Positions 9,017-60,500 of a stretch of DNA of 64,000 bases are shown one piece after another. Source of the DNA: an uncultured Clostridia bacterium (lineage in GTDB: Bacteria; Bacillota; Clostridia; TANB77; CAG-508); NCBI GenBank assembly GCA_944387545.1, contig CALXFE010000004.1, positions 6,562 through 70,561 of the forward strand, read 5' to 3'. The position numbers were made by a program, and so were the translations under genes. Below the pieces are notes generated by a model. It was given only the letters and a program-made list of their open reading frames with translations, made no database searches and was not told the origin of the DNA. Position 1 is the stretch's first letter; each line of letters begins with the position of its first letter.

Positions 9017-10684
9017 TTAAGCTGCCTCCATTAATTGGTTGCTATTTTCTTCTATTTTCTTATCTATTGATCTTTTTTCTCTTTCTAAAACTTCTGAATA
9101 TGAATCTAATATTTCTAATTCATTAAACTTTACAACTATTGCCATAATAATTTGGGTATCTTTCGGTAATTTCATACCTGTTATAGATTCTACATCATCA
9201 ACAAACATTGGTGTTTTTATACCTAATACTTTATTTAATAGTGTAGCTATTTCAATATCTGCTCTTAATTTATAAGATTTAGATAATTTTTCATATTCTC
9301 TACCAGAATACTTTATGTCATAGACATCTAATATTTCACCTGTTTCCTCGTCTACTTTGCTAAATTCAATAGTTACTTTATCTAAATAATCTGAAACTTT
9401 TTTCATCTGTTCCTGGATAATTAAAAGATTTAATCTTCCTGCTATTTTTATTTGTTTTTCATATTTTTCTATTGTATTTTCTACTGTTTCGATTTCTTTA
9501 TCTAATTGTTCTATTTTTGATTTAGCTTTTATAATCTCATTATGTTTTATTTCTATTTCCTTGTTAAATAAGTCTACTTTCCTTTTTTCTTCTTGTAAAA
9601 TATCAATTCTACCCTTTAGCTCATCTCTTCTTTTTGTCTGCTCTTGCATTTCTGGCGTTTTCATAAGTTCATATTTTTTTATTTGGCTTTCTTTTTTATT
9701 TATGAATTCTTTTGTTTCTTCCTTTAGTTTTCCTATTCTATCAGCTAATTCATTTACATTATTTTTATATTTTATCTTTAAAACTTTAATAAGATTCTCG
9801 TTTTGAATAGGCTGTTTGCATACAGGACAATTAGATGAAGTTGAAGATACATTATTAAAATTCTCAAGTTCCTTTTTTTGCTTTTCCTGAAGACTTTTTA
9901 ACTCTATATTTACATTATTTTTTATCTTTTCATCCAGCTTTTTTATGTCTTTTTCTAAATCTTCTACAGTAATAATATTGTCAGTATTTTCAATTATCCT
10001 TTCATATTCCTGTTCTATATTTTTTAGCTCTTGTGCTTTTTCAAAGACTAACGGACTTTCTTCTTTTTGAATAGCAATATCTATAAGTGCATTTTTATTT
10101 CCTAGCATTTTATCTAAATCAGATTTCATCTCTTTAATTTCTGCCCTTCTTGCCTTATTAAATCCTTTTATATCTACTACTGGTTGTTCTAAAATTTCCT
10201 GTTCTTCTTTTTCTAATAATGTAAAAGCATAATCAGATGAAATTGCTGGTAAAACTCTTAAAAGTAATTCTCTTTGATCTGTAAGTTTCATGCTTCTAAA
10301 GTAACTTGGATTATATGCACAAAGAAAAGCGTGTATGTCTTTATAAAAAACTGAAATTATTTCTTGTGTGGTTCTTATACCATCAAGCATAACGCAATTA
10401 TCTTTTCCTTTACTTCTAGTTATTATATGTTCGCTTCCAGTATTGTCGATAATTGTCATACTTGCTATTGTATTTAAGCCTCTATTTTCTTTGTCATTAG
10501 ATACAACTTCTCTGTTATTACCAAATAGACTGTAACCAGTTAATATCCAAACAGGCAAAGAGCCTATTGTACTTTTATTTTTAGCATTATCACCTATAAT
10601 GTATGTAATATCACTAAAATTAATATTAAATCCATCATCTAAACCTTTATAATTTCTTACATTAAATATATTTTTTATATACAT
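9017..10684 (-). CDS. SbcC/Rad50-like coiled-coil ATPase with a zinc hook.
   Basis: An N-terminal P-loop-like segment (IIGDNAKNKST, degenerate) is followed by a long coiled-coil with a central CPVC zinc-hook. A C-terminal Walker-B-like PMFVDDVESI is present. Confidence 0.5.
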   Translation of the reverse strand: MYIKNIFNVRNYKGLDDGFNINFSDITYIIGDNAKNKSTIGSLPVWILTGYSLFGNNREVVSNDKENRGLNTIASMTIIDNTGSEHIITRSKGKDNCVMLDGIRTTQEIISVFYKDIHAFLCAYNPSYFRSMKLTDQRELLLRVLPAISSDYAFTLLEKEEQEILEQPVVDIKGFNKARRAEIKEMKSDLDKMLGNKNALIDIAIQKEESPLVFEKAQELKNIEQEYERIIENTDNIITVEDLEKDIKKLDEKIKNNVNIELKSLQEKQKKELENFNNVSSTSSNCPVCKQPIQNENLIKVLKIKYKNNVNELADRIGKLKEETKEFINKKESQIKKYELMKTPEMQEQTKRRDELKGRIDILQEEKRKVDLFNKEIEIKHNEIIKAKSKIEQLDKEIETVENTIEKYEKQIKIAGRLNLLIIQEQMKKVSDYLDKVTIEFSKVDEETGEILDVYDIKYSGREYEKLSKSYKLRADIEIATLLNKVLGIKTPMFVDDVESITGMKLPKDTQIIMAIVVKFNELEILDSYSEVLEREKRSIDKKIEENSNQLMEAA

Positions 10685-10707
10685 ATTTTACCTCCAATTA
10701 TTGTATT

Positions 10708-11238
10708 TTAAGATACTTTTTCTGATGAAAATATTTTGTCTAATTGGTCTATATCATAATTGCTTTCCCCATTATTTTGACTTTCTTCAATGTCATTGCC
10801 AATAATATCTAATTCATCATCTGGATTATCTTGTAAACCATCATCTTTATTATCATTTTGAATTTCATCTTTAATAGGGATTGCAAATACTTGTTGCATT
10901 GCATATCTATATGCTCCCGTTAATGCTCCAAATACAGCCCTACCTTTTTCATCAAAACCAGATGCAGGAATTTCAACTTCTATGCAATCCTTTTGTTGGT
11001 CTTCTACATCTATAAATTGATACTTCATTGTTATATGAACTTTATTTCCTTGCGTACCAAAGTTTATAACCTTCTGTGGTAAAATAACAACTTTATTTTT
11101 TATAAGTAATGGTTGAACCATTGAGATTATTTCCTCTGCTTTTACTGTTTTATAAGTTCTCCCATCCTCATCTGTTACTTCAACTTTTATAATTGGTTGT
11201 ATTTCCTCCATTATTTTTATAATCTTCTCACCAATCAT
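10708..11238 (-). CDS. erf: ERF-family single-strand annealing protein.
   Basis: YKTVKAEEIISMVQPLL and GRAVFGALTGAYRYAMQQVFAIPIKDE match the conserved ERF blocks (YKYRS.EDI...vkPLL / TGA.SYARKY.L..LFGI.DD). Confidence 0.6.
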   Translation of the reverse strand: MIGEKIIKIMEEIQPIIKVEVTDEDGRTYKTVKAEEIISMVQPLLIKNKVVILPQKVINFGTQGNKVHITMKYQFIDVEDQQKDCIEVEIPASGFDEKGRAVFGALTGAYRYAMQQVFAIPIKDEIQNDNKDDGLQDNPDDELDIIGNDIEESQNNGESNYDIDQLDKIFSSEKVS

Positions 11239-11822
11239 ACTAATATTCCTCCTACATTTTTTATTTTAATTTTTTGGCAAATTTCAAATATATCTACATT
11301 AGAATCATTATCTATAAATTCAAATATCTTCATATAATCAGGATTTGTTTCGCCTATAATAATTTCTTTATAAGCTATATTTTGTTTTCTTAACTCCTTA
11401 AATGAACTTTGAATACAATTTACAACAAAATTATTTTCACTCCAGTATGTAGATGTCCATACTAAAATTGCATATTGTTTTCCGTATGCTTGATATTCTT
11501 TATAAATATCAATTTTATTAAAAATATTGTTGTGTTTATTTGGCATCTTTTTAATTTTTCTTTCAATGATTTCTAACCCTCGTATATCTATTGCCAATAC
11601 CACCTTAAATTTTTCTTGCTTTTTAAAATTTCTTTCCATTACAATTTTTATGTCTTTTTCTCTAAACCAATCTTCAGTTTTATCAGAGATAAGTGTTACT
11701 AAATATTCGTTATAGTAATATTCTTTTGCTTCTATAATTCCTAATTGTCTATGTTTCTTTTCGCTGATTTTTCCTATACCATCTACAAGAACTACCTCTC
11801 CTTTTCTAAACCTGTTTTTCAT
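11235..11822 (-). CDS. Hypothetical protein.
   Basis: ORF of 195 aa, translationally coupled (overlapping ATGA) with erf. Confidence 0.35.
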   Translation of the reverse strand: MKNRFRKGEVVLVDGIGKISEKKHRQLGIIEAKEYYYNEYLVTLISDKTEDWFREKDIKIVMERNFKKQEKFKVVLAIDIRGLEIIERKIKKMPNKHNNIFNKIDIYKEYQAYGKQYAILVWTSTYWSENNFVVNCIQSSFKELRKQNIAYKEIIIGETNPDYMKIFEFIDNDSNVDIFEICQKIKIKNVGGILV

Positions 11823-12017
11823 TGTAATTCCATCCTTAATTCTTTATCTAATTTTTTTATAAATTTTTTGATGGTTACATTGTATTTATCCCAAAACTTT
11901 GTTATAATTCTATATATAAAAATTAAAGATTGGATAATTAGAATAAGGCATACTATTAAAATTTTCTTTACTACTTTCATTTTTTATCCTTTCCAAGTAG
12001 TCTTGCAACACCCTTTG

Positions 12018-13019
12018 CTAGACTGCTTTTTTATTTTCTATTTCGTCTGAAATTGCTTTTAAAACCTTGTATTGATAAAGTATAGTATTCGTATCTTCCT
12101 TTATCATTTTTAAAGGTAATATGATGCTTCCTGGCTTTAAATATAATATCTGTTCATTATCTTTCTTTTCATTTGGCATTAAAATAAGTTCCAAATCCTG
12201 TTTTTGAACATTCATAAACTTTAATTTTGGAACTTTTTGATTTTTATATATGGTTATTTGACTGCCTTTATACATTAAACAATTTTTTAAAGCATCACTT
12301 TTTTTATCTTTGCTTTCTTGATTAGCATTACTATTTTTATTCACATTATTGCTATTAGTATTATCTTTTGATATTTGAGTTTTATTTTCCTCTATTTTTT
12401 TATTATTTTGTTTATTTAGAGATTCTATATTCTCATTCGTAATTTCTCTAATATCTGGTATATAATTCTTGCCTCCTCTAGGAGCATCTTCAGAAATTAA
12501 ATAAAGTTCATGCCAACAATTTGTAAGATCCTTTCCTAAACGATTTGCTCTTTCAATTCTTTGTTCTATATAGCTAATTCCTTTTTCACTACCAATAGGA
12601 AAACACCAAATACCTTCTTCTTGTGGTATTTTTTCCATATAAAAATATAATCTAGCTGCTTTTTTACATTCTCTTTTTTTCCTATATGGACAATCATTTA
12701 CATTGCACTCTATAATTTGTGCTTTTCCTTTTTCATCAAATACTTTAGCCTTATTTCCATTTCCATAGCAAGTTCTTCTTTTCCCTTCATATCTTTCATA
12801 ATATGTAACCATTGGCTTTTGACATACAAACTTTATTCTTATTTTATTTGGATTCTTATATGCTTTATTAAATAATTCTACTGCTAAACTTGGAGTAGAT
12901 TTATCAATATGCACATTAAAATATGCAAGTTTTACAGGTCTATCATTTTCTCCTCTTGTGCCTGTTCTAACATTGCCCAATAGATTTCCTTTTATACACT
13001 CTTGTAAACTTTTTTCCAT
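12018..13019 (-). CDS. Hypothetical Cys-rich protein (possible zinc-binding).
   Basis: ORF of 333 aa. It contains CYGNGNKAKVFDEKGKAQIIECNVNDCPYRKKREC and an Asn/Lys-rich low-complexity tail. Confidence 0.35.
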   Translation of the reverse strand: MEKSLQECIKGNLLGNVRTGTRGENDRPVKLAYFNVHIDKSTPSLAVELFNKAYKNPNKIRIKFVCQKPMVTYYERYEGKRRTCYGNGNKAKVFDEKGKAQIIECNVNDCPYRKKRECKKAARLYFYMEKIPQEEGIWCFPIGSEKGISYIEQRIERANRLGKDLTNCWHELYLISEDAPRGGKNYIPDIREITNENIESLNKQNNKKIEENKTQISKDNTNSNNVNKNSNANQESKDKKSDALKNCLMYKGSQITIYKNQKVPKLKFMNVQKQDLELILMPNEKKDNEQILYLKPGSIILPLKMIKEDTNTILYQYKVLKAISDEIENKKAV

Positions 13020-13033
13020 ATTATTACCTCTTT

Positions 13034-13288
13034 CTATGCTATTTTTACCAATGTTTTTTTGTTTGAATAAATAAAATCTTCAATTTCAGCAATTAATTCA
13101 TTTCTAACAGTAGTTTTTATTCTTCTTTCTTCATCTTCGCTATTTTTTGTAATACCTGGTAATGTTACATTTAATTCTTCTAATTTTTCTTCAAAAATTT
13201 CTACTATTTCTGAAGCAAATTCTCTTTCTATTGTTTCATTATTACTAGGGATTACATTTTTAGCTCTTTTCTTCGAGATAAATCCCAT
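13034..13288 (-). CDS. Hypothetical small acidic protein.
   Basis: ORF of 84 aa, first gene transcribed leftward from the 13.3-13.8 kb intergenic region. Confidence 0.3.
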   Translation of the reverse strand: MGFISKKRAKNVIPSNNETIEREFASEIVEIFEEKLEELNVTLPGITKNSEDEERRIKTTVRNELIAEIEDFIYSNKKTLVKIA

Positions 13289-13814
13289 AATTTTTTCTCC
13301 TTTCTTTTATATTTTCTTATTTCGTATTTAAAACAAGGGATTAACTCTAAATTCCTCCTTTCCTAAAAATAAAAAAAGCAAAAAAAGAGCAAAGAGGTAC
13401 TGGGGGGTGAACTTATCTTTGCTAACTTTTTTTACTTTATTAAAATTTTAAAGCACACTAAATAAAGTCTTCACTTTTAAAGCATTTAGTGCTTTTTTAA
13501 CTACACTTACACTTGTAAGTAATTCTAGACATTAAAAAATGTCCTTAAACCTAAATCTAAATCTTTTGAATTTAGTTTAGGTAAATGAAATAAGGTTTTT
13601 CCTTATTTCATCACTTGTTTTAAATACATTTATATTATACAACCTATTTTCTCTAAAAAAAATATAAGAAAGAAAAATATTTTTTTATTGATATTACAAG
13701 CTTTTTAAGATATTTTTTACGAAATTTGTAAAATCGCAAGTATTAGTAGATTTTTCGCTGTATTTATGCTATACTTTAAAGTACAGCACAATTTTTTATG
13801 TATTAGGTGATGAT
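13289..13814. promoter_or_regulatory. Divergent intergenic control region carrying several hairpins and inverted repeats. It is a candidate for promoters, oriT or a small RNA.
   Basis: At about 13385-13435 an 8-bp stem AGCAAAGA/TCTTTGCT encloses a loop with a G6 run and is flanked by A-runs and T-runs on both sides. A near-palindrome CCTAAATCTAAAT...ATTTAGTTTAGG lies at about 13547-13580. A perfect 11-bp-stem hairpin ATGAAATAAGG-TTTTT-CCTTATTTCAT lies at about 13585-13611. An extended -10 TGcTATACT at 13767-13775 and an AGGTGA RBS precede the 13815 start. Confidence 0.4.
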
Positions 13815-14264
13815 ATGGACAATATTTATAAATGTGATCAATTAAATCTTATTCCAGATAACACCTTATTTTTATTAGATAATGAATTGGGTAGCATTTC
13901 TTTAGCCCTAAAATCTGAAGAAAACAATTTTAACCATGTTGACTTTAAATTCAAAAAATTACAAATATCTAATGAAACATTTGGCGTTTTATTGTTAAAA
14001 TTGGATGATAAAATTTATAGTTGCTTTATTGATTTAGATAAATTGCAGGACAAAATATGTTTAGAAAAATTACTACATTTTGATTTTCTAACTCTTATTA
14101 TTTTTGGAAATTCTAATGAACACAAAGTCTATAAGATTTCAAATAGTCTGAAAAATAAAATTCTATTTAATATTTCTAATAGTTCTCAAAATATAAAGAA
14201 GCATCAAATATCACTTGAAAAAGTTAAAAATATGTTTTCCAATACAACTTTGTGGAATATGTAA
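13815..14264 (+). CDS. Hypothetical protein (the only convincing plus-strand gene).
   Basis: ORF of 149 aa. A GGTGA RBS lies 6 nt upstream of its ATG, and an extended -10 element is upstream. Confidence 0.4.
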   Translation: MDNIYKCDQLNLIPDNTLFLLDNELGSISLALKSEENNFNHVDFKFKKLQISNETFGVLLLKLDDKIYSCFIDLDKLQDKICLEKLLHFDFLTLIIFGNSNEHKVYKISNSLKNKILFNISNSSQNIKKHQISLEKVKNMFSNTTLWNM

Positions 14265-14325
14265 ACTTATGGATTTAAATTGTCTATTTAAACAAATTAA
14301 AGGATAGATTTATATAACCTATCCT

Positions 14326-14562
14326 TTATAATTTTGTATAACATTCGTCTAAAATTTCATTTTTTTCCTTTGCTGTTAAATTTCTTTTTAATTCTTTTTG
14401 CCTTTCAAAAATTCTTCTGCTTGAAACCTCAATTAATTCCTCTGCTTTTGGTGCTAATAGTTCTCCTACCTTTTTATCTTTTTTCTCATAGTAGGTTTCA
14501 TATATGAATGTTACAACTGCTCCTCCAAATATTATAGCTAGCATAATTTCCATAACTACCAT
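14326..14562 (-). CDS. Small membrane protein.
   Basis: 78 aa with an N-terminal hydrophobic helix (MVVMEIMLAIIFGGAVVTFIY). Confidence 0.3.
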   Translation of the reverse strand: MVVMEIMLAIIFGGAVVTFIYETYYEKKDKKVGELLAPKAEELIEVSSRRIFERQKELKRNLTAKEKNEILDECYTKL

Positions 14563-14632
14563 CCTTTCTAATTCTATTAATATACACCATTATATATGCC
14601 ATCATGTTAAGATTTCAATTTGAGAAAAAATT

Positions 14633-15115
14633 TTAGTTTATTTTATCTATTATTTTTATAGGATATGAACAAATAAGTACCTCTTTATTAGTGTTTATGA
14701 GTTTTTTATTATATTGTTCATTTTCTAATACTATTATTATTTTATCTGCATTAGAATAATCCTTTAATTTTTTAAAAACTGTATCTTGCTCGATATGTCT
14801 TACTACTGCTATATCACAAACTATTTTTTCATTTGTTAAAACTGTAAATATTACAGGAAATCGTTTACTATATCCTATATCTTTAATATCATTTTTTATC
14901 ATTTTTACTACATCCAATGCTACAGCCGTTCTTACATCTACTTTTTTCATTTTTAGATATAATAGTTTTGTTTTTTCATCTTTTATTATTAGATTTGCTG
15001 AAATTAGATATTGAATATCTTGTATTGAACAATTTGTAAAATACATTAACTGTTCCTCACTACAACTTTTAAATTTACTTAAAAATTGCAATACACTATT
15101 TTGAGCTTTAGTCAT
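14633..15115 (-). CDS. Hypothetical protein.
   Basis: ORF of 160 aa, overlapping the upstream gene by 8 nt. Confidence 0.35.
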   Translation of the reverse strand: MTKAQNSVLQFLSKFKSCSEEQLMYFTNCSIQDIQYLISANLIIKDEKTKLLYLKMKKVDVRTAVALDVVKMIKNDIKDIGYSKRFPVIFTVLTNEKIVCDIAVVRHIEQDTVFKKLKDYSNADKIIIVLENEQYNKKLINTNKEVLICSYPIKIIDKIN

Positions 15116-15950
15116 TTGTGTTCTCCCTTCTTACAATTTTCAATAATGAACTATAAATTTTTCTTTTCTCTGGTATTATTTTTTTGACTTTAACAATAAT
15201 CATATCACCAGGTAGTGGAGGCATCTCTAACCAAACTGGAAGTGTTGCCATAGTGTCTATTCCTTGTTTTAAACTTGCAAATACTCCATTATCAGAAAAT
15301 CCTGTTGTTTTAGCCAAATACTCTCCTCCTTCTACAAAGTATTTTCTTATGTTTGTATATGGATCTTCTTTTGTTTCCTTATGTGATACTTTTAAGATTC
15401 CATTTTCTATATCTATTTTTTTTATTATAACTTTTATTTTATCTCCTACTTGATATAACTCGTTTAAATTTGCTACATATCCATATTCTAAATCTCCTAT
15501 TTTGAGTTTTAAATCCATTCCTAAACACTCTATCTGAAGATATTTGCTCCATACTGCCATTACTTTTGCATAAACAATATCTCCAGCTTCGTACTTTTTT
15601 AACTGAATGTTTTTTATTCTTTCCATTGCTTTTTTTCTTGAACCTACAGCAGTATTTGTTAGTTTATCGGATTCTAATATTATAAATTTTATTTCTGAAC
15701 CAATAAGATTTCTAATGGTTTTTTTATCATCTTTTTCTAATCCAAGTTCTTTTCCTGGAATTAGCACTTTTATATTTTTAAAATTAACAATTACACAATT
15801 TATATTATCCTCATAAATTTTACCGTCTTCATGCGTTAGTTTTACTTTCTCATTTTCTATTGCTATTGCTCTTCCTGATAATATTTTATTTTTTTCTTCG
15901 GATGTATTTATATTTTGCCATGCAAATTGTTTTTCTAATTCATCTATCAA
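15108..15950 (-). CDS. Hypothetical protein with a possible OB/S1-like fold.
   Basis: 280 aa with alternating hydrophobic/charged beta-strand pattern (GDIVYAKVMAV...LGMDLKLKIGDLEYGYV). Coupled to the coupling-protein gene by an ATGA overlap. Confidence 0.3.
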   Translation of the reverse strand: MIDELEKQFAWQNINTSEEKNKILSGRAIAIENEKVKLTHEDGKIYEDNINCVIVNFKNIKVLIPGKELGLEKDDKKTIRNLIGSEIKFIILESDKLTNTAVGSRKKAMERIKNIQLKKYEAGDIVYAKVMAVWSKYLQIECLGMDLKLKIGDLEYGYVANLNELYQVGDKIKVIIKKIDIENGILKVSHKETKEDPYTNIRKYFVEGGEYLAKTTGFSDNGVFASLKQGIDTMATLPVWLEMPPLPGDMIIVKVKKIIPEKRKIYSSLLKIVRRENTND

Positions 15951-17824
15951 ACTTTTTTCCTCCTTCCTCTTAAAAATTCCTCGAATGTTGGCAATCTCAC
16001 TTCATCTTCATTTTCATTTTCTTCTAATGGCTTTAATTTATATTTGTTTATAGGCTCATAATTTTCCACTGATTTTTCTTCAATACCTTGTCCTAGTCTA
16101 TACTCCCAATATCTTAATTTTTTACATTTAAAAGGTTTATAGCCTCTTATAATAATTATTTCTTCTGTATTATCCATTCTCATTATTTCATCCTCATTCA
16201 TAACATTTCTTTTAACAACAGATGTTGATTCTACTCCATATTCTAAAGCTCCATCAAATTCTGCATCTTTTCTAACACTACTACTGATTGCTGAACTTAC
16301 TCCGAGAGATCTAGTTACATAACTTGCCGTCATTAGGTCGTTCACGCCCATTACGATTTTAATATCGCAGTTCCCGATTAGCCCTTGCCAAGCATCGTCT
16401 GGATACAACGGGATCAAGGAAGCTATATGCTGGCACACTATCGTACAGGATATGTTTCTGGACCTTGTTGTGCTTAATTTCTGCTGAAAGTCTGGAATTT
16501 GTCCTATATTAGCAAACTCATCTAATAGAATACATAATTGTCTATCTAGTTTTTTATTTATATTTCTATCAGCTTGTCGTATTGTCTTTATGAACAAAAA
16601 TGAAAAGAACAGATTATTTAAGAAGCTCATTGTTGTATCCATATCGCTTATGATACAATAAATAATCATTTTCTTGTTGTTTAAATCTGTAAAATCTATA
16701 TCATTTTTCTCTGTTATTGCTGCTATTTCATCAAGCTGGAAAATTTGAAGTTTAGTAGCAAGTCCTGTAATTGTGCTTTGTTTTATTACATCACTTGCTT
16801 GTGCATATATGTTATATGCAATTTTTGTAATCCCTTTAGAATGTTTAAATACTTCATCTACTTTCTTTATATCACCAGATGCAAGAATTGAGTTTAAATA
16901 CCTCATATTCTTTTTATTTTTATCTTCAACTTCAAATTTAATATGTAATAGTAATGCCTTTAATAAGTTTTCCTGGTTATTTTGCCAGAACTCATCTCCT
17001 TTTTTTCCTACATTTTGATTAGTGCTTATTACCACTTGAGAAAATACTTGTGCATCTATCTCTTTTTCTATAAACTTAAATAAATCTATTCCGTCTGAAT
17101 GATTAGGATTTACTAAATTAAATACTCTTACTTCATATCCTTTTTCTTTAAAAAAATTGCTTGTTAAACCATAAAGTTCACCTTTTGGATCTGTGCATAC
17201 AACATTTTTTCCTTCAACTGCAATTTTTTCTAAAGTTTCCTTTGTAATTTTGTTATTATCTTCAAAAATTTTCTCTTGATCTGCTATTTTTAAAGCATTT
17301 GGGATAATGTAGCTTGTAGATTTACCAGAGCCTGAAGAACCCCAAATCATAATATTACGATTTATTTTCTTACAGCTATCTGGGAGTGTTATTATTTCAT
17401 CTGTATCTAATGTTTTACCTAATACTATTCCTGAAATATTTGCCTCATCTCCTATTTTTAATATATCAATTTCTTGTGGTGTAATTAAACTAGCTGTTCC
17501 ATGTGTTCCATCTTTTGTAAATCTAATACCTTCTTTTTCTGTTTTCATTTGTTTTTTAGTAAAGAAAATATTAAAAATAAATAGTGCTATTTGAACTGTT
17601 ATTATTAAATAAATAAGTAATATTATTTTATCTGTAAATATTGCTTTGAAACAGTCAAATAGATTAGAAATCTCTATTATTTGGTAATCTTTACTAAAAC
17701 ATTTCTCTAGTTTATTTATATACCAATTTGTTATTGGTACAATGGTTATTATTGACAAAAAAATATAAACAAAAGATATTACTAATTTGTTTTGTAATAC
17801 CTCTTTTAGGCTCTTAACATTCAA
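15947..17824 (-). CDS. Type IV secretion coupling protein (TraG/TraD/VirD4 family).
   Basis: N-terminal TM helices, Walker A WGSSGSGKSTSYIIP, Walker B ILLDEFANIG, 625 aa. Confidence 0.8.
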   Translation of the reverse strand: MNVKSLKEVLQNKLVISFVYIFLSIITIVPITNWYINKLEKCFSKDYQIIEISNLFDCFKAIFTDKIILLIYLIITVQIALFIFNIFFTKKQMKTEKEGIRFTKDGTHGTASLITPQEIDILKIGDEANISGIVLGKTLDTDEIITLPDSCKKINRNIMIWGSSGSGKSTSYIIPNALKIADQEKIFEDNNKITKETLEKIAVEGKNVVCTDPKGELYGLTSNFFKEKGYEVRVFNLVNPNHSDGIDLFKFIEKEIDAQVFSQVVISTNQNVGKKGDEFWQNNQENLLKALLLHIKFEVEDKNKKNMRYLNSILASGDIKKVDEVFKHSKGITKIAYNIYAQASDVIKQSTITGLATKLQIFQLDEIAAITEKNDIDFTDLNNKKMIIYCIISDMDTTMSFLNNLFFSFLFIKTIRQADRNINKKLDRQLCILLDEFANIGQIPDFQQKLSTTRSRNISCTIVCQHIASLIPLYPDDAWQGLIGNCDIKIVMGVNDLMTASYVTRSLGVSSAISSSVRKDAEFDGALEYGVESTSVVKRNVMNEDEIMRMDNTEEIIIIRGYKPFKCKKLRYWEYRLGQGIEEKSVENYEPINKYKLKPLEENENEDEVRLPTFEEFLRGRRKKV

Positions 17825-18734
17825 AAATACCTCCTAACCAATCTTTGTCAATTACTTTTATGCTACACCTATTATCACCTACCATTTCTCCTATTTTTTC
17901 TTTATTTTCACTTATTGTTATAATTTCAACTTTTTTTAAACTATCAGAATTTTCTTTATAAAACCATTTTAATTTTTCTATTTTTTCCGTATTTATAAAT
18001 ATCATTTCAATAATATATTTATTTTCATCTAATAAGTAATCTGCCTTATCCCAATCACTAATTAGAAGTTCCTTGTTATACATTGTTTCTAATACTTCAT
18101 GCCAATTTATATTTGAATAATTATTTATAAGCCTTTTATTAGTATTATCATTTACAATAACAATCGTATTTTGCTTTCCAAAAGAAAAGTTTGAATATTT
18201 TGGACATATAATACTTAAATCTTCCACAAAAATTATAATATTTTCGTAGCTAAACGATTTATTTATATCAAAAAGTAGTTGCTTGATATAAACATCTTCC
18301 TTTTTTCTTGAAACATAATATGCAAGATATTCTCTATTATCAATAATTATTTTTCCAATATACCTTCTAGCTGTTTCAGTAAATATATCTTTTTCTTTTA
18401 TAAGCCAGCTAGGTTCAAATTTTATATTAGAATCTATACTTAATGTTGCAATACTAGCAATAGCTTTTAGTCTTTCCATATATGCTTCATTTTTTATATT
18501 TTTAATATATCCTTGTCCAACTTCTCCTAATGCTTTTCTTCCATTTTTATCTAAAATTATGTAGCTTTTATATCTTTTTACATATCCTTTATCTATCAAT
18601 TTATTTACTCTATCTCTGTAATATCTTTTTGTATGATAGATAAGTGTTGCATCTTCTACTTTTAACATTTTATATTTTGACAAAAATTTTAATACTTCTA
18701 AATCTTCTTTTTTTAAGTTGTTTTTCTCTAGCAC
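17814..18734 (-). CDS. Possible replication-relaxation family protein with a winged helix.
   Basis: N-terminal wHTH-like LEVLKFLSKYKMLKVEDATLIY...RDRVNKLIDKGYVKR. Positioned directly upstream of the coupling-protein gene, as in Firmicute ICEs. Confidence 0.35.
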   Translation of the reverse strand: MLEKNNLKKEDLEVLKFLSKYKMLKVEDATLIYHTKRYYRDRVNKLIDKGYVKRYKSYIILDKNGRKALGEVGQGYIKNIKNEAYMERLKAIASIATLSIDSNIKFEPSWLIKEKDIFTETARRYIGKIIIDNREYLAYYVSRKKEDVYIKQLLFDINKSFSYENIIIFVEDLSIICPKYSNFSFGKQNTIVIVNDNTNKRLINNYSNINWHEVLETMYNKELLISDWDKADYLLDENKYIIEMIFINTEKIEKLKWFYKENSDSLKKVEIITISENKEKIGEMVGDNRCSIKVIDKDWLGGIFEC

Positions 18735-18888
18735 CTAAAACCTCCTTTTTTCATTTAAGACACAGTTTTTTCAACGGTGTCTTAAACTATTGAAAAACAG
18801 AAAAGTTTTTTTCCGAGATTTAAAGATTTACAAGATTTTTTTATACAAAATTTTTTCATTTGAATTTTTTTAAATTTTTTCATACTTT

Positions 18889-19485
18889 TTATATTGTTTT
18901 TTGTAATTTTTCTATCCAGGATAAAATATATTTTCCATCTAGTACAAATACTTCTGTATAAGGCTTTTTAGTATCATTTTTACCTAATGCTAGATAAAAC
19001 ATATTATTTATATTGTCATCCTGAATAATATTTTGTAAAACTAACGCATCCACTATTGGTTTTACATATTTATTATCTATATCCATATTTTCTTGTTTTT
19101 CGTGTACTATAATTACTACAAATGTAAGTTTATCCTTAAATAATCCTTTGTAATCTTTTACTGCCTCTGCTGTATTTAATAAAATATTTTTATAAGCATA
19201 GTTATTGATTCTCTTATATTTTGGAATTACTTCTGGAATATATATCTTTAAAATATCCTGTTTCAATTCTGCTTTATATGAATTATTTATACAATGAATT
19301 TTGTCTTGTTCTTCTATTTGTTTATCATTATTTAACTTTATTTCATTAAATATTTCATATCTTGTTTTTTCTAAAAATCTTAAATACTTTTCTATATCTT
19401 TGTTTTCTAAAATATTTCTGTTATTTATAATAAAATCTGTTTGTTCTTTTAATTCGTTTATTTCCGTTAAAATTTTAGAGTTCAC
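18889..19485 (-). CDS. Hypothetical protein.
   Basis: ORF of 198 aa. Confidence 0.35.
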   Translation of the reverse strand: MNSKILTEINELKEQTDFIINNRNILENKDIEKYLRFLEKTRYEIFNEIKLNNDKQIEEQDKIHCINNSYKAELKQDILKIYIPEVIPKYKRINNYAYKNILLNTAEAVKDYKGLFKDKLTFVVIIVHEKQENMDIDNKYVKPIVDALVLQNIIQDDNINNMFYLALGKNDTKKPYTEVFVLDGKYILSWIEKLQKTI

Positions 19486-19554
19486 TTTCTCCTCCTTGTA
19501 AATAAAAAATTAAAGAAGATATAAAAGTTATCCTCCTATATCTTCTTTTTTTGG

Positions 19555-30095: not shown

Positions 30096-30866
30096 TTATT
30101 TAGCTTCTAATTTTCTTACTAGACTTGTATAATAATAGTCAAAAAAATTTCTAATTTCATTTTCAGTATTTTTATAAGAATTTTCAAATCCTTTGCAATT
30201 CTCATAAACATCTAAAAAATTTTCTCTTGTAGCTTTCTGTAATAATCTTTTGTTTTTAAAAAACATTTCTTTAAGTGTATAAATTATAATCTTTAGTTTT
30301 TCAATATTTTCATCCCTAAATGTTTTTATTATTTCTTCAGTATAATTAAATTCAAATTTTATTAAAAGTTCATAAAACTCTTGATATATTTGAATTTCTT
30401 TAAATTCTTTTTTCAATTCGCTTTTATTATTATTTATAATTAAATAAAAGAATCTATCTATCTTTATATCTTTAGCTTTTTGGCTCATAGGGTATTGTTT
30501 ATTTTGCTTATAGGGGTATGTGCTATTTTGCTTATAGGTATCTTGCACAATTTTCCTACAACTTATATCTGTAATGTAAATTCTTCTTTCTGTTATCTCT
30601 TTCTTATCATTTTTAATTAGTTCAACATTTATATAACCTAATTTCGATAAATGTGAAATCCATCTTGAGATTGTTCCTGGTATTACATTATATAAGTTTG
30701 CAAAGTATGAATTAGTCGCAAAACAATATCCTTCTTTTCCAATTAAAGCTGTAATTTCTCCATATAATAGTCTTTCTGCATATTTTAACCTTTCATCATA
30801 ACGAATTGTAGCTGGAATTATTGCATAATATGCAACCTGTTTTTCTTCGTTCACATTTGGCATCAC
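30096..30866 (-). CDS. Replication-initiator-like HTH protein (RepA_N/DnaD-like).
   Basis: YYAIIPATIRYDERL...LYGEITALIGKEGYCFATNSYFANLYNVIPGTISRWISHLSKLGYI resembles the N-terminal domains of Firmicute plasmid and phage Rep proteins. Internal iteron-like repeats are present. Confidence 0.45.
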   Translation of the reverse strand: MMPNVNEEKQVAYYAIIPATIRYDERLKYAERLLYGEITALIGKEGYCFATNSYFANLYNVIPGTISRWISHLSKLGYINVELIKNDKKEITERRIYITDISCRKIVQDTYKQNSTYPYKQNKQYPMSQKAKDIKIDRFFYLIINNNKSELKKEFKEIQIYQEFYELLIKFEFNYTEEIIKTFRDENIEKLKIIIYTLKEMFFKNKRLLQKATRENFLDVYENCKGFENSYKNTENEIRNFFDYYYTSLVRKLEAK

Positions 30867-31171
30867 CTACCTTTGCTATTTTTTATTTCTGAATTTTCAT
30901 TTTCATTAACAGAACTTTTTAATTTTAGTTCGTTTGCTAATTGATCAAATATTTTATCAATTTCTATTGTTGAAAAATCATTGGCATCTTCCAATTTTAT
31001 CATTCCTCCTATTTTAAAATAATATATATTTCATTTACACGAATTTTTTTTAACTTCACTCACCTATTTTGTTTTTTTAATCTTGTATTATTCAGTATTA
31101 CATAGTCCATATAGTCCGAAAAATAAAGCCTCTATTGCTTGAAAAATAGGGCTTTATTGATAACACTCGTA

Positions 31172-31447
31172 CTATGAGACAAAATACTCAACATTATTCT
31201 CAGGAAAAAACTCTTTGAATTCGCTATATAGTTGTCCTGCTAATGTCTTATTATGTGCTAAAACAAGTGTTGGTTTTTGTACCTTTTGGATAATATTTGC
31301 CATTGTAAAAGTTTTTCCAGAACCTGTAACACCAAGTAGGGTCTGAAATTTTTTGCCTTCTTCCACTCCATTTGATAAGTATTCAATTGCCTTTGGTTGA
31401 TCGCCTGTTGGTTTATATTCTGAATGTAATTTAAACATATTCATCAC
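31172..31447 (-). pseudogene. uvrB: uvrB 5' fragment (codons 1-91) truncated at the mobile-element boundary.
   Basis: [91 protein letters not shown] is collinear with the UvrB N-terminus. The conserved continuation YYDYYQPEAY is replaced by TAG at 31172-31174 and then element DNA. Confidence 0.85.
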
Positions 31448-31490: not shown

Positions 31491-32402
31491 TTATTCATTT
31501 CCTGTAATCTCCTCTTCTACTTCAGTATTATTTTTATTATTCTTATCATGAACTTTCAAATAATATGGTTGTATATCTAGTAAACTGTCCATGTATATAA
31601 TATTTCCATCTTTATCATTAATTTTCAAATTTGGAAAAGTTTTTATCATCTTTTTATCTCCCCAGAATTTATATATAAATCCTGATAATTTTTCATTTCC
31701 ATATATTTTATTATATTGCTCTATAACAAGCTCTTTATTTGAAACATTTATATCATTTTTTACAATCATTCTTACTAAGAAAAAATCAATCGCAAATGCG
31801 GTAGATATACAATCAATCATTAATAAAATAAATACTGCCATAACAAAGGTTTTTAAACCTTTATAAGTTTTAAATTTGCTTTTAATCCAGTCGATTATTT
31901 TATCTACCTTTGGATTTAAAGAAGCAATCAAATAAATTCCTAAGAATCCCCAGAAAATTGAAAAGTATACACAAATTCTTCCATTGATATTTAGTGGCAT
32001 CCCTGAATAATCCCACCATTTAACCCCAAGTAACATTTCTCCTAAAAAACTGACAACATATTCTACAATTGAACCAACGATAAATCCTCCAAGAAATAAT
32101 ACGTTGAATTTTCTAGGAAACTTGTGTAAACATATAATCATGATGACAGCACCTAAACCATATATCCCACAAAAAGGGCCATATAAAAAGCTTTGTCTAC
32201 TTTCCCATACCCCTTTTGTTATCATACCATAAAGTGTTTCAATAATATATCCTACCACACTATAAATGATAAAATAAGCTAAAATTCTCCATATACTAAT
32301 CCCATTAATTGTTCTTTTTTTCTTAATCGTATTTTGATTATTTTCTCCTGTTACAGTGTTTTCTACTTTCATTTTTTCTTTCTTTAGCTTTTCTTTTTTC
32401 AT
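31491..32402 (-). CDS. Polytopic membrane protein of the putative 'ABC-transporter type IV' (PF06541-like) family, paralog 1.
   Basis: Motifs YFIIYSVVGYIIETLYG, FLYGPFCGIYGLG and WWDYSGMPLNINGR are shared with the ORFs at 35506 and 36358. Confidence 0.5.
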   Translation of the reverse strand: MKKEKLKKEKMKVENTVTGENNQNTIKKKRTINGISIWRILAYFIIYSVVGYIIETLYGMITKGVWESRQSFLYGPFCGIYGLGAVIMIICLHKFPRKFNVLFLGGFIVGSIVEYVVSFLGEMLLGVKWWDYSGMPLNINGRICVYFSIFWGFLGIYLIASLNPKVDKIIDWIKSKFKTYKGLKTFVMAVFILLMIDCISTAFAIDFFLVRMIVKNDINVSNKELVIEQYNKIYGNEKLSGFIYKFWGDKKMIKTFPNLKINDKDGNIIYMDSLLDIQPYYLKVHDKNNKNNTEVEEEITGNE

Positions 32403-32424: not shown

Positions 32425-34236
32425 TTATATTAAACTTCTCAATTCGTCAATTTTCTCTTTATAAAATTGTGTCATAACTTTATATGTGTTACTATCTTCT
32501 AAATCAACATCTACCATTTTTAAAAGGTCTACTGATTTTTTTGTACAACCTTGACTTAGCATATTAATATATTTTTTTATAAATCCCTCTTCTTTATTCA
32601 AAATTTTTGTAGCAATACAAATGGCAGCTGATATTCCTGTTGCATATTTATATACATAAAAATCTCTATAAAAATGAGGAATTCTAGACCATTCATATTG
32701 TATCTTATCATCAATTATGATATCTTTTCCAAAATATTTTTGATTTAATGTATAATACATTTTATTTAAATCTTCTGCTGATAACATTTCTCCATTTTCA
32801 ATCTTTTCATGTACTTCTTTTTCAAATTCAGCAAACATGGATTGTCTATAGAAAGTTGCTCTTATCATTTCCAAAAGTTCATAAATATATTCTGCCTTTT
32901 TCTTTTTATCTTTCTCATGTTGTATTTGGTATTCATTAAGTAAAATTTCATTTACAGTTGAGGCCACTTCTGCTACCATAATCGTATAGTTTGCATCAAT
33001 GATATTTTGATTTTTGCTAGAATAATATGAATGAATACTATGTCCTAATTCATGAGCAATCGTAGCAACATCTTTTTTATTTTGCGTAAAACTCATTAAT
33101 ACAAATGGATGCACGCCATATACTCCAGAACTATATGCACCACCTCTTTTATTTGGTTTTTCATATGCATCTATCCAGTTATGTTCAAAAGCTTCATTTA
33201 ATATATCACTATATTCTGTTCCTAATATAGCTAGAGCTTCTTTTACTTCTTTTTTTGCATCTTCAAAAGAAATTTCGTCTTTCTCTTCTTGGAATGGATT
33301 TACATAGATATCATATAGATGCATTTCATTCATATTTAGCAATTTTCTTTTTAAAGATATGAATTCATGATTAATTTCTAATCCGTCATTAACGCCTTTC
33401 ATTAGTGCTTCATATACTTTGATTGTTGCATCATCATGAATCGTTGCTCTTTCTAAAGAAGAGCTATATTTTCTTAATCTTGAAGTAATAACGGTTTGCT
33501 TTACATTTGATAAATACATTTCTGTTATGGTATTAATATATTTGCTATATTTTTTGTACATTAAATGAAAAGCTTGTTTTCTAATTTCTATATTTGGGTT
33601 TTTTAAATATTTTGTATATGTCGCATCTGTTAACTCAATTTCTTTTCCTTCTTCATCTACTAAAGTTCCGAATTTAAATTCTGCATTTGTTAAGATATCA
33701 TATATATTTTCTGGAGCAGAAAATATTTCTGAATAATTGGCAAGTAAATTTTCCCCTTCCTTACTTAAAATATGTTTTTTCTTCTCTAAAATATCTTTTA
33801 TATCTCTTTCATATGGTTTTAATCTTTTATCTTCAGATAAATATTTATTGATTATATTTTCATCTGTAAATGTAATTTCAGGTGTTATAAAGGAAGTTGC
33901 TGTACTAAATTCTGATGATAAATTTTCTACCTCTTTAAATAATTTTATACCTTCTTGATCTGCCATATTTAGATGATAAGAAAACATTCCATAAGAATAG
34001 ATTTTATCAAAGTTTATTAATAATGTTTCATATAAAGCATAGCATTGATATAAATTATCTGAACTCTCACATAGTTTTCCTTTATATGTTTCTATCTCTT
34101 TTAAGTTGTTTCTCATTGTTTTGACAGCTTCATAAAATGTCTCCTTATTTTTATATAAATCTGTTAATTTCCAACTATATTTATCTTGTATATTGTTCAA
34201 ATTCTTCTCCTCCTTTTTCTTTTGCCATTTTACCAT
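32425..34236 (-). CDS. pepF: Oligoendopeptidase F (M3B family).
   Basis: 603 aa with HELGHSIH zinc-binding motif and overall PepF-like composition. Confidence 0.85.
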   Translation of the reverse strand: MVKWQKKKEEKNLNNIQDKYSWKLTDLYKNKETFYEAVKTMRNNLKEIETYKGKLCESSDNLYQCYALYETLLINFDKIYSYGMFSYHLNMADQEGIKLFKEVENLSSEFSTATSFITPEITFTDENIINKYLSEDKRLKPYERDIKDILEKKKHILSKEGENLLANYSEIFSAPENIYDILTNAEFKFGTLVDEEGKEIELTDATYTKYLKNPNIEIRKQAFHLMYKKYSKYINTITEMYLSNVKQTVITSRLRKYSSSLERATIHDDATIKVYEALMKGVNDGLEINHEFISLKRKLLNMNEMHLYDIYVNPFQEEKDEISFEDAKKEVKEALAILGTEYSDILNEAFEHNWIDAYEKPNKRGGAYSSGVYGVHPFVLMSFTQNKKDVATIAHELGHSIHSYYSSKNQNIIDANYTIMVAEVASTVNEILLNEYQIQHEKDKKKKAEYIYELLEMIRATFYRQSMFAEFEKEVHEKIENGEMLSAEDLNKMYYTLNQKYFGKDIIIDDKIQYEWSRIPHFYRDFYVYKYATGISAAICIATKILNKEEGFIKKYINMLSQGCTKKSVDLLKMVDVDLEDSNTYKVMTQFYKEKIDELRSLI

Positions 34237-57504: not shown

Positions 57505-60500
57505 CTAGTATGCTGGTTGTAAGTTCCAACTTCCTGTAGTATATAAAGCGTATAATCCTATTAAAAATCCTCCACTTATACTCGTATTGGCATATGTTGA
57601 ATCCAAAATATTTTCATCAATTTGAATTTCACTTTCCGCTTCAAACCCAATTTTAAATTTTGTAATATCTAAAACTATGCCTGCAGTACTAGTAGTATCT
57701 CCATTATTAATTGAAAATTTTAATGATGTATTATCTAATCCTAGACTTAAATCTAATGTAGTTCTTGAAATATTAAATTTTATTCCTATGTTTGAAGATT
57801 TAGGAGATTTTACTACTCCATTAGCATAAACTGATATCAATTTAGATGAGTCTCCTTTTTTCGAACTAACAGTACTTTTTCTATATCCCGTTTCTACAGA
57901 TATTGGTGAATACTTAGGAGTATGTATAATTGTCTCTTTTTCTAATACTGTTACTTGTGAAGAAACTCCAAACCATCCTGCTACTGTTTTACATATCTTT
58001 TTAAAGAAATTTATAACTCCTGTAAAAAAATGTCCTTCAATATCAATTCTATTAATTGGATTATTCTGACAATATGCATACATATTTTTATCCAATAAAC
58101 CTTGACCAGTTTGAAGATAAGCGTCTGCATTGATAAACCTTCCTATCTCTGGATTATAATATCTACTCTGTAAATAATATAAACCTGTTTCTGTGTCATA
58201 TCTGTACCCTCTGTATCTGTATGGATTTTTATAGCCTATGTGATTCGCATTATTGGTTACATCATTTCCTTCTCCATCCTTGATGCTGATTAGTTTTCCC
58301 CATGTATCATATGTATAACTAACTATTTGATTTAGGTTGTTATCTAATATACCTATAATATCATTTTGTCCATTTCGTATGTAGTAATATTGTTCATTAT
58401 TTAATTGAAATCCAATTAGATTTTGACTATCATCATATTGGTAATAGATTGTATCGTTTCCTTTGGTTTCATAAATAACGATTTCTCCATCTAAATGATA
58501 CGCTGTTGTTTCTCCGTTAACTGTCTTTTCTGTTCTAATACCATCATCTGTATATTTATAGGTTATGTTTAGTCCTTTTTCTGTATTTTGTATACCTGCT
58601 AATTCCCTTCCATTTTGCCATGTGTAAGTATTTCCATCATATGTTAATGGATTTCCAATAGCATCATATGTAATTTGTTTTCCATTATATGTAGTTAATT
58701 GGTCTTTCCAGTTTGCATTATTATATATATATTCAATAACTTTAGTTGGTTGTGTTGTAATATCTCCTTCTGTATAGGCATATTCTTTTTTGTTTAAGAT
58801 ATTTCCACCTGTATCATATTCATAGATAATTGTTTTTTCTTGTTCTTTATTATCTTCTCTTGTTAATTGTCCTAATCCATCATATTGATATTTTGCAAGA
58901 AATTCATTTCCATTTTTAATGGTTTCAATATATCCCATATTATTATATGTATAGTGGATTGCTTCATTGTTTCCATTTTTGATACTTTCTAATATAGTTG
59001 TTGTTTTGTTTGGTGTTTCTGTATTTTTATATTCATATTGTGTTGTATAGGTTCCTTTTTCATTTATGATGTTTTTACTTGTTCCTCTTGCTAATCTATC
59101 ATAATTTATTTTTACGACACTATTGTTAAATAGAATACTATTGATGTTATTATCACTATCAAAATTATGATTCATGATATTGGTTTTATCATTTAGTTTA
59201 TATTCTGTTTTGTTTATATTACTATTATCATCATATTCATATAAAATTGTCAAGCCCTTATTATTTTCTGCTTTTGTCATTCTATTAGCTAAATCATAGC
59301 TATAATTTGTTGTAATGCCAGTTGTATTGTCTTTTATCGTTTTTAGATTTGATTTTGCATCATAATTAAATTCTATATTTCCTGTTGTTTTTTCTTTTTT
59401 TATAATTCTATTAAATCTATCATATTGATATTTTACATTTTGATTATTTCCATAAGTAGATTGCAGTAAATTTCCATTTTTGCTATCATATATTGTAGTT
59501 TTTAAACTCTGATTTCCAAGTTTTATATCTTTTACATTTCCATATCCATCATATACAAATTCATATGTGATTCCATTATGTTTAATTGTTTTTATATTAT
59601 CATTTTCATAGGTATATTGATTTGTATATGTTTTTTCTCCTACTTGCTTTGAAACTTGTGTTGTTAAATCTGTATTTGCATCATAACTATAAATGGTTTC
59701 TCCATTATTAGAATCAATTTCTTTTGTTACCAATCCTTTATTTTCATCATATACATAATTTGTTTCATTTCCAGCCTCATCTGTTTGTTTTGCTAAATAT
59801 CTACCATCTTCTGAATATGTTCCTGTTGTTTCTATATATTTTTTCTCTTCTGAGGGTATCACTTCTTCTAAAAAGAATTGTTGTGCAGCACTATTATTAA
59901 TACTCCATGACCATATTTTTACACCACTACTTGTTGAAGCATCTTCTACATCTAAACATCTTTTTCCATTTGTTAGTCTTGGTTTTATAGCAAAACTTCC
60001 ATCTCCTACTGGAACAAATTCAAATTCTTGAGCCGAATTTTCTCCTTTTTCTCCCCATTCTCTATATATATTTACAGCTGTTCCTTCTGCCGGGTTCGCA
60101 TTATCTATATCCATTACTTTTGTTTTATCTGCTTTTGACACAATTTTATAATATCCATTATTTAGTTTTTTTAATATCCATCTCTGACTATTCTCATCAT
60201 TGCTATCTTGCTGTTCCAATTTATTATTATTAACCCCAATATATTTTCCACTATGTTTTGCTCTAATTTTATACGTTGCACCTGCATCTATATCAACTAA
60301 ATCTGCTTTTTCCAAATAAAAACTTTGATTTGCTCCCCCTGTTATATCATATATAGTTCCTTTTGCACCTATATCCGTGGTATTATTTTGAATTGTTATT
60401 GCTCTTTCTGTTCCACTCAATTTACTTCTAATTGAATATGTATTATTGCCATTGTTTACTAGTTTCCATTCTTGTGATAAATTGTTTTCTGAACTTTCAT

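Follow-up and report, generated by a model that had tools for sequence, protein, structure and literature searches.

Probable site-specific insertion of a conjugative element into the nucleotide-excision-repair gene uvrB of gut Clostridia

Several mobile elements are known to split a bacterial gene. The skin element in sigK, SPbeta in spsM and phi10403S in comK are gene-splitting elements that are removed by large serine recombinases, enzymes that use a two-base overlap and a dyad target of about 40 bp, with half-site motifs common to attB and attP. In Streptococcus pyogenes, mutL is occupied by SpyCIM1, a small island of phage-like type that has a known integrase and for which growth-phase excision was shown. 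SXT, of the SXT/R391 elements in prfC, integrates through a tyrosine integrase and supplies a 5' end of its own that makes prfC functional again. Here, we describe a locus in an uncultured Clostridia bacterium at which a conjugative element abuts the 5' part of uvrB. All positions refer to the window, namely the whole stretch of 64,000 nucleotides that was analyzed, which has a G+C content of about 26% and contains no tRNA genes.

The uvrB fragment lies in an open reading frame at 31172-31447 on the minus strand, which a first-pass annotation had read as the N-terminus of UvrB with its Walker A motif. This reading was confirmed in a tblastn search with the intact UvrB (653 aa) of L001, the closest genome locus, from an uncultured Clostridia metagenome-assembled genome (MAG). 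Residues 1-94 of this protein align with window positions 31438-31157 at 94.7% identity (E 3e-52), and UvrB has no other match anywhere in the 64 kb window. The fragment is collinear with UvrB, carries the Walker A motif GSGKT at codons 39-43, and its 88-aa product is matched by the ResIII/DEAD families of Pfam. The earlier annotation also described a gene that stops after codon 91 at the element boundary; the collinearity and the stop hold, while the length is corrected here to 88 codons, as counted from the ATG at 31438 (MFKLHS...). This ATG is most likely the true start, given that it agrees with the start of the homologues and is preceded by a GGTG ribosome-binding site 7 nt upstream. Codons 1-88 (31175..31438, minus strand) are thus host DNA. 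Directly after ...EYFVS, a TAG codon at 31172-31174 stands where the conserved YYDYYQPE is expected, a replacement that had already been pointed out and that is evident upon reading the sequence. Of a full UvrB of about 650 aa, only residues 1-88 are present at the stub, with the beta-hairpin, domains 2 and 3 and the UVR domain being absent.

Past the stop codon, weak similarity to uvrB runs for 15 nt further (TAgTAcGAgTgTTATCAA versus TAtTAtGAtTaTTATCAA). We read this stretch as a probable element half-site that resembles the host half-site, rather than as residual host DNA. Just inside the element, a terminator-like hairpin with a T-run (31116..31158, minus strand) faces transcription coming from uvrB. 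RNA folding of 31105-31180 gave -20.6 kcal/mol (z = -3.8), with none of 200 shuffled sequences being as stable; this hairpin was missed by a simple terminator scan because its stem contains a bulge. As the 88-residue stub is closed by TAG and by the terminator-like hairpin, the uvrB copy at this locus is inactive, and carriers of the element are probably without UvrB.

To follow the junction in other genomes, the first element gene was looked up in public assemblies. This gene (30096..30863, minus strand; PF13730) encodes a 255-aa HTH_36 protein of replication or regulatory type and is separated from the junction by a small ORF of 46 aa (30863-31003). The exact protein was found on 439 contigs, and ten loci (L088-L097) were inspected. 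Eight of these (L089-L091 and L093-L097) contain the 88-codon uvrB fragment at a constant distance from the 255-aa gene; L092 contains the same fragment with a frameshift and L088 has no uvrB fragment. In L089-L097 and in L192, the element side is 100% identical for 1.1 kb from TAGTACGAGTG (TAGTACGAGTGTTATCAAT) on. The uvrB side, by comparison, is only 79-86% identical between loci and is variable through its last codon, such that the endings before TA read GTCTCA, GTAAGT, GTATCA, GTTTCA or GTGTCA, depending on the host. At least six different uvrB alleles are hence joined to the same element end at the same nucleotide. The genes upstream of the uvrB fragments are mostly unrelated and include sbcCD, polA, relA/spoT-like genes, ABC exporters and, in this window, polysaccharide genes; when flanks have genes in common, these show about 74% identity. 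Comparison of 11 kb of the element between hosts gave 94-100% identity (0-6% differing), a far closer relationship than that of the hosts themselves. An invariant element side next to variable uvrB sides and flanks argues that the fragment belongs to each host and that the element arrived separately at the same nucleotide.

It should be considered that the fragment could instead be the element's own, taken from an earlier host, and not the mark of a host uvrB. Such an origin would agree with the homology between loci, which begins abruptly 3 nt before the uvrB start codon, and with the GTDB species representatives, none of which carries a fragment that exceeds 88% identity to one of the seven. 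The fragments, however, differ by 14-21% while the adjoining element is 100% identical, and each lies in a different host-like neighborhood (polA, sbcCD, polysaccharide synthesis genes). A uvrB fragment that travels with the element was accordingly rejected on the basis of polymorphism; this explanation is largely refuted, and we consider it scarcely credible.

In this window, the host flank begins directly upstream of uvrB with a gene for a CmpB-like membrane protein (31491-32402, minus strand), followed by a gene for oligoendopeptidase F (32425-34236, minus strand). The exact CmpB protein was found on only 4 contigs. Elsewhere in the window, a 2153-aa ORF (57505-63966) with seven ricin-type lectin repeats, RHS repeats and DUF6531 adjoins a long cluster of polysaccharide-synthesis genes and resembles surface proteins of the polymorphic-toxin type.

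The only sequence common to the host and element sides of the junction is the dinucleotide TA at 31173..31174 (minus strand), the first two bases of uvrB codon 89, which we infer to be the crossover point. The invariant element sequence starts with the G at 31172, which completes the stop codon TAG with the TA shared with the host. The adjoining positions 31140..31172 (minus strand; GTACGAGTGTTATCAATAAAGCC...), which by direct reading are identical in L089-L097 and L192, would act as the element-side attachment half-site. In this arm, TATCAA lies at the same distance from TA as it does in the host half-site TTATGATTATTATCAAC.

All of the sequences compared are metagenome contigs, in which repeats shared between species can be mis-joined. 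As about 50 kb of leftward sequence contained no junction with the uvrB 3' part, insertion is deduced from one junction, the right one, which is present here, and from the empty uvrB sites that are present in other species. Could the wrong flanks have been attached to a common repeat by metagenome assemblers? The element is a long repeat that several species have in common, and one left flank could in this way come to be paired with many right ones; all related sequences are indeed metagenome contigs. The identical junction, however, recurs in over ten assemblies produced by different assemblers, with a 771 kb contig (L093) among them; right flanks of the window's host end at the same point in three contigs from three samples; the host-specific CmpB protein and sequence from far to the left occur together on one contig; and deletion variants have unique junctions of their own. 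An assembly artefact is therefore most improbable. The claim made at first pass, that a large integrative and conjugative element had been inserted into uvrB, is in contrast borne out by an identical element end (1.1 kb) that abuts codon 88 of divergent uvrB genes with unrelated flanks. Insertion into uvrB at a conserved hot spot is well supported by these comparisons and, in our opinion, very likely.

The locus without a uvrB fragment, L088 (1-10000), is a variant of the element that is 99% identical from the HTH_36 gene on but has a different right end, with ORF6N antirepressor-like, DUF4097 and LiaF-like genes and with smpB nearby. This suggests that the attachment module was swapped for one with a different target site.

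The conservation of the target was scored across 69 intact uvrB genes of diverse bacteria, in 36-nt windows along the first 600 nt. The windows that start at uvrB nt 247-253 span the TA at 265-266, and these hold ranks 1-7 of 564 in conservation. At the protein level, the insertion motif is ...EYFVS|YYDYYQPE.... The target forms an imperfect dyad, GTTGAGTA...TTATCAAC, with its center at TA, while one of the two element arms is seen. Being nearly invariant in uvrB, this target allows the same element to land in many species of gut Clostridia.

The same site is used by other DNA as well. In four GTDB genomes (Lachnospiraceae, Acetatifactor), uvrB is cut at codon 88-90 by unrelated DNA (L032 10001-10270, L039 1048-1320, L079 9995-10264 and also L077), such that at least three unrelated elements are found at this uvrB site in other genomes. 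The occupant in L079 is conjugative as well but is a different element, which encodes ParB, a DnaC-like ATPase and a coupling protein of its own. L091 contains, in addition to the uvrB fragment abutting the conjugative element, a decayed and frameshifted uvrB piece (4432-4524; codons ~64-88) that lies 4.9 kb upstream of that fragment and ends at a second junction, TCA|TA|GAATGAGCAACTTCAAG. The approximately 4.9 kb between the two junctions contain genes of no assigned role, including those for a transglutaminase-core protein and an LRR protein. This arrangement suggests successive insertions at one site, with the second junction being the older; the origin of the regenerated complete uvrB 5' fragment is not explained by such a succession. 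A further uvrB piece, of 31 codons (residues 38-68), was noted in a Lachnospiraceae MAG (L022 6118-6210), where it lies 1.4 kb upstream of an intact uvrB, with a 288-aa ORF in between. Full-text searches of the literature gave no report of uvrB as an integration site.

The portion of the element inside the window spans 1..31172 (minus strand) and extends beyond position 1, as contigs that are 100% identical over 11 kb continue leftwards. The first-pass annotation had described all of the DNA from 31172 down to position 1 as conjugation and phage-like, and this description is upheld by VirB4, the coupling protein, ERF, SSB and methylases. The genes given below with coordinates lie on the minus strand, and the order is from the junction leftwards. 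A type IV secretion block identified with Pfam (22460..29710) encodes pilin-like (29318-29710) and PrgI-like (29008-29304) proteins, a VirB4 of 625 aa (26446-28323; DUF87/AAA_10/P-loop_TraG), a TrbL/pilin-like protein (24958-26433), an M23 peptidase (24221-24961) and a sortase (23222-23803). It is followed by an 853-aa surface adhesin (19834..22395) with thioester (TED) and SpaA domains and an LPKTG sorting signal. Between the adhesin and the phage-like block are genes for SpoVG, a type IV coupling protein of the VirD4/TraG type (15947..17824; PF02534, T4SS-DNA_transf, E 3.6e-63; TraG-D_C; TrwB_AAD_bind) and an S1-domain protein. A 333-aa protein of the phage-like block (12018..13019) contains a phiC31 Gp3-like recombination-directionality-factor domain (PF18897, E 1.1e-20; 74.8 bits as compared to a cutoff of 23.6).

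The phage-like replication and recombination module (1301..11238), likewise identified with Pfam, comprises ERF (10708-11238), an AAA/SMC-like protein (9017-10684), an S6-like protein (6688-6999), SSB (6247-6666), two DNA methylases (5101-6003 and 3966-4637), an ArdC/SprT-like protein (2405-3283) and a zinc-ribbon primase-like protein (1301-2386). The ribosomal-protein-S6-like gene lies directly upstream of the SSB gene (window 6247-6999), an arrangement that mimics the chromosomal rpsF-ssb pair.

With both the type IV secretion ATPase VirB4 and the coupling protein present, the element is conjugative. Its VirB4 is 40% identical to that of large Clostridium botulinum plasmids (235-276 kb). No relaxase family was matched among the element proteins in Pfam or PHROGs, with the 306-aa protein adjoining the coupling protein having no match. 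Collections of plasmids and phages contained no DNA-level match to the element. The element was likewise absent from viral contigs, and the viral contigs that bear uvrB all have an intact 5' end.

As for the enzyme that would have inserted the element, Pfam searches found no serine, tyrosine or DDE recombinase (Resolvase/Recombinase, Phage_integrase, DDE) in the called genes of the core of about 35 kb, and none was found hidden among the unannotated element proteins with Pfam and PHROGs. Pattern searches of all loci for an inverted copy of the element arm and for the conserved YYDYYQPE DNA returned only the known junction. A TA overlap, a partly symmetric target, TATCAA at equal spacing in the host and element half-sites and a Gp3-like gene, taken together, nonetheless point to a large serine recombinase by analogy with known systems. 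The Gp3-like domain should be given little weight in this respect, since Gp3-like proteins also occur in phages that have no serine integrase. This predicted excision-factor domain is also the sole evidence of a capacity for excision.

Beyond position 1, the sequence was followed leftwards by exact-protein look-ups, with proteins of the region itself and with one metagenome scan. This walk added about 30 kb and did not reach a left end. The order of genes past position 1 is three HTH regulators, a MazE-like gene and small ORFs, followed by an abhydrolase/ArsR/DUF1648/ABC cluster, then variable ABC modules and repeated response-regulator/kinase/BceAB-type units and, furthest left, a PAP2 phosphatase, an rRNA methyltransferase-like gene and an adenylyltransferase. 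This island (L191 7500-21662, L206 1-20651, L196 5789-12422 and L207 1596-7571) is thus a mosaic of BceAB-type ABC transporters for peptide resistance with two-component systems. In L196 and L207, small elements with Mob_Pre, a serine recombinase and AAC/APH aminoglycoside-resistance genes are inserted in the island at different points, and these are the only places where serine recombinases were seen. The remainder of uvrB and a flanking recombinase had been sought beyond the left edge, following the earlier annotation; neither was found in about 50 kb, which did not extend to the true left end. For uvrB 3' sequence, over 130 loci were searched by tblastn and by motif, which together span about 50 kb contiguous to the left of the junction, and there was no match.

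Whether the island is host DNA or cargo of the element bears directly on how the locus is explained. That it is host DNA is suggested by a cluster 93-97% similar that adjoins carB in element-free contigs, and by a pair of contigs whose identity is 100% in the core but 89-98% in the island. Observations that argue for cargo are the 99.4-99.6% identity of the island across contigs whose right flanks come from clearly different hosts, and the core itself, which varies by up to 6% between hosts. Right flanks of the window's host stop, by our arithmetic, 51,373-51,396 nt from the junction in each of three contigs from three samples, and a single contig of 101,745 nt holds both the host-specific CmpB protein and the island. 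No sharp boundary between core and island was located, with identity shifting gradually. The view of the island as an ordinary host flank is weakened, as the core varies as much as the island does and as the island is tied to different right flanks on single contigs. Because of the identity of the island across hosts, the variation of the core, the lack of a boundary and the contig with CmpB, we favor one large composite element; its far end, where the recombinase and the uvrB 3' part would be located, would then lie beyond the approximately 50 kb covered.

The same observations serve to weigh the possibility that the locus is a dead relic, in which the left end, the recombinase and the uvrB 3' part were lost or relocated, the stub cannot be repaired and the host has no UvrB or relies on a second copy. 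In agreement with such a relic are the lack of a recombinase in the core, leftward sequence that resembles the ordinary chromosome next to carB in element-free contigs, the deletion variants, and the absence of any uvrB 3' sequence or motif from the loci searched to the left of the junction. Against this, the same element and island are linked to right flanks of clearly different hosts, which requires a unit that is still mobile, and the extent of variation is equal in island and core, as fits cargo of one large element with an end that was not reached. If the unit is still mobile, then every fresh site-specific insertion must have uvrB from codon 89 onwards at its other end. We therefore regard a dead relic as a rather doubtful, albeit serious, explanation.

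Deletion variants are informative in their own right. Three different large internal deletions of the element were found in L092, in L094/L192 and in L096, each still in uvrB. These deletions join the first 2-10 kb next to uvrB straight to the transporter island, such that the transfer and recombination genes are gone, and such derivatives occur in at least two host backgrounds. In L092, moreover, the uvrB fragment (9425-9692) has a 1-nt insertion in the Walker A codons. Disruption of uvrB is also seen where the element is not. Upon a search with the C-terminal part of UvrB, 34 of the 120 best UvrB relatives were N-terminally short calls. We considered such short calls (565-608 aa) as products of the junction and rejected this idea, as those inspected were full-length uvrB genes frameshifted by insertion of a single C at ...CT^C GGA.... 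The insertion sites are the Walker A codons (GGC TCT^C GGA AAA) and codon 66 (GCT^C GGA CAA). For example, L213 (9741-10010; also L214-L216) contains an otherwise intact uvrB in which a single-C insertion creates CTCGGA. In these loci, CTCGGA is found nowhere else on that strand, and a +1 shift at each CTCGGA would restore the native protein. Some of the short uvrB calls were seen on up to 34 contigs. The single-C alleles may be either recurrent pseudogenes, reflecting frequent loss of nucleotide excision repair (NER), or cases of +1 recoding at the rare CGG codon.

The deletion copies that remain in uvrB and the frameshifts argue that restoring uvrB is not under strong selection, and the frequent disruption of uvrB in element-free relatives likewise suggests little selection to restore it. 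These data bear on the idea of a regulated switch, raised at first pass, in which precise excision, for instance after DNA damage or before transfer, rejoins the uvrB halves and couples repair to the element. In favor of a switch are the precise, site-specific insertion, the phiC31 gp3-like excision-factor domain encoded by the element, and the displaced 5' fragment, which in most loci has kept an intact frame and its ribosome-binding site. Yet neither an integrase nor the uvrB 3' half was found in the sequence covered (about 35 kb of core and about 50 kb to the left), copies that lack the type IV secretion and recombination modules stay in uvrB, the L092 fragment is frameshifted, uvrB is often disrupted in relatives that lack the element, and a search of the literature gave no report of such a switch at uvrB. 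We thus favor tolerated loss of UvrB in these gut anaerobes over a regulated switch, which we deem unlikely; the switch is the exciting part of the story, but is so far unsupported.

A broader, and quite improbable, proposal is that the TA of uvrB codon 89 is a landing pad shared across gut Clostridia and Lachnospiraceae and that, together with the +1 frameshift alleles, it makes NER a contingency function. If this were true, NER would be turned off by element entry or by frameshift and brought back by gp3-assisted excision or by +1 recoding at CU-CGG-A, so that mutation rate and element mobility would be linked.

Taken as a whole, the explanation that we find likely combines site-specific insertion, a serine recombinase and tolerated loss. 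A conjugative element, whose core measures about 35 kb and which probably exceeds 50 kb with the attached peptide-resistance transporter island, would enter uvrB between codons 88 and 89 by site-specific recombination, with the point of exchange being the TA in the best-conserved DNA of the uvrB 5' part. Recombination would be carried out by a large serine recombinase, the presumed enzyme. The insertion would leave an 88-residue stub and a TAG completed by the element, with the terminator-like hairpin coming next. This explanation predicts that a restored attB would read ...GAGTATTTTGTCTCA TA TTATGATTATTATCAACC..., that uvrB from codon 89 onwards would read ...TA TTATGATTATTATCAACC at the far junction and that the junction of the circular element would read left end + TA + GTACGAGTGTTATCAAT.

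If confirmed, uvrB would join comK, sigK, spsM and mutL as a gene split by an element and would be the first NER gene among them. That the target is the most conserved stretch of uvrB explains the entry of one element into many species, and the recombinase, once found, could serve as a broad-host-range integration tool. The element is common, as judged from the number of contigs with its first gene, and is linked to an island that gathers resistance genes of peptide, macrolide and aminoglycoside type. If carriers lack UvrB, abundant gut anaerobes could mutate faster and be more sensitive to drugs that damage DNA.

When compared with known systems, the uvrB element shares features with each of them. 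Like the large C. botulinum plasmids and other conjugative elements of Firmicutes, it encodes VirB4, a coupling protein, a PrgI-like protein, an M23 hydrolase and a sortase-anchored adhesin; unlike the plasmids, it is chromosomal, carries a phage module with ERF, SSB and gp3-like genes and has no recognizable relaxase. As with SXT/R391 in prfC, the target is a conserved housekeeping gene, which a conjugative element enters in its 5' part in many hosts, but the uvrB element leaves a visible 5' stub, and no rebuilt uvrB was found. With skin, SPbeta and phi10403S, it shares precise insertion in a coding sequence with a very short overlap (TA here), a stop codon supplied by the element and an excision-factor-like gene. 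It differs from these three in that the target is an NER gene, in that the element is conjugative, rather than a phage or phage remnant, in that neither a recombinase nor a second gene half was found in the sequence covered, and in that there is no sign of developmental or damage-regulated excision, against which the decayed copies argue. As compared to SpyCIM1, the uvrB element is large and conjugative and is known here from sequence alone. In both cases, nonetheless, a mobile element interrupts a DNA-repair locus, so that repair capacity and mutation rate could depend on the state of the element.
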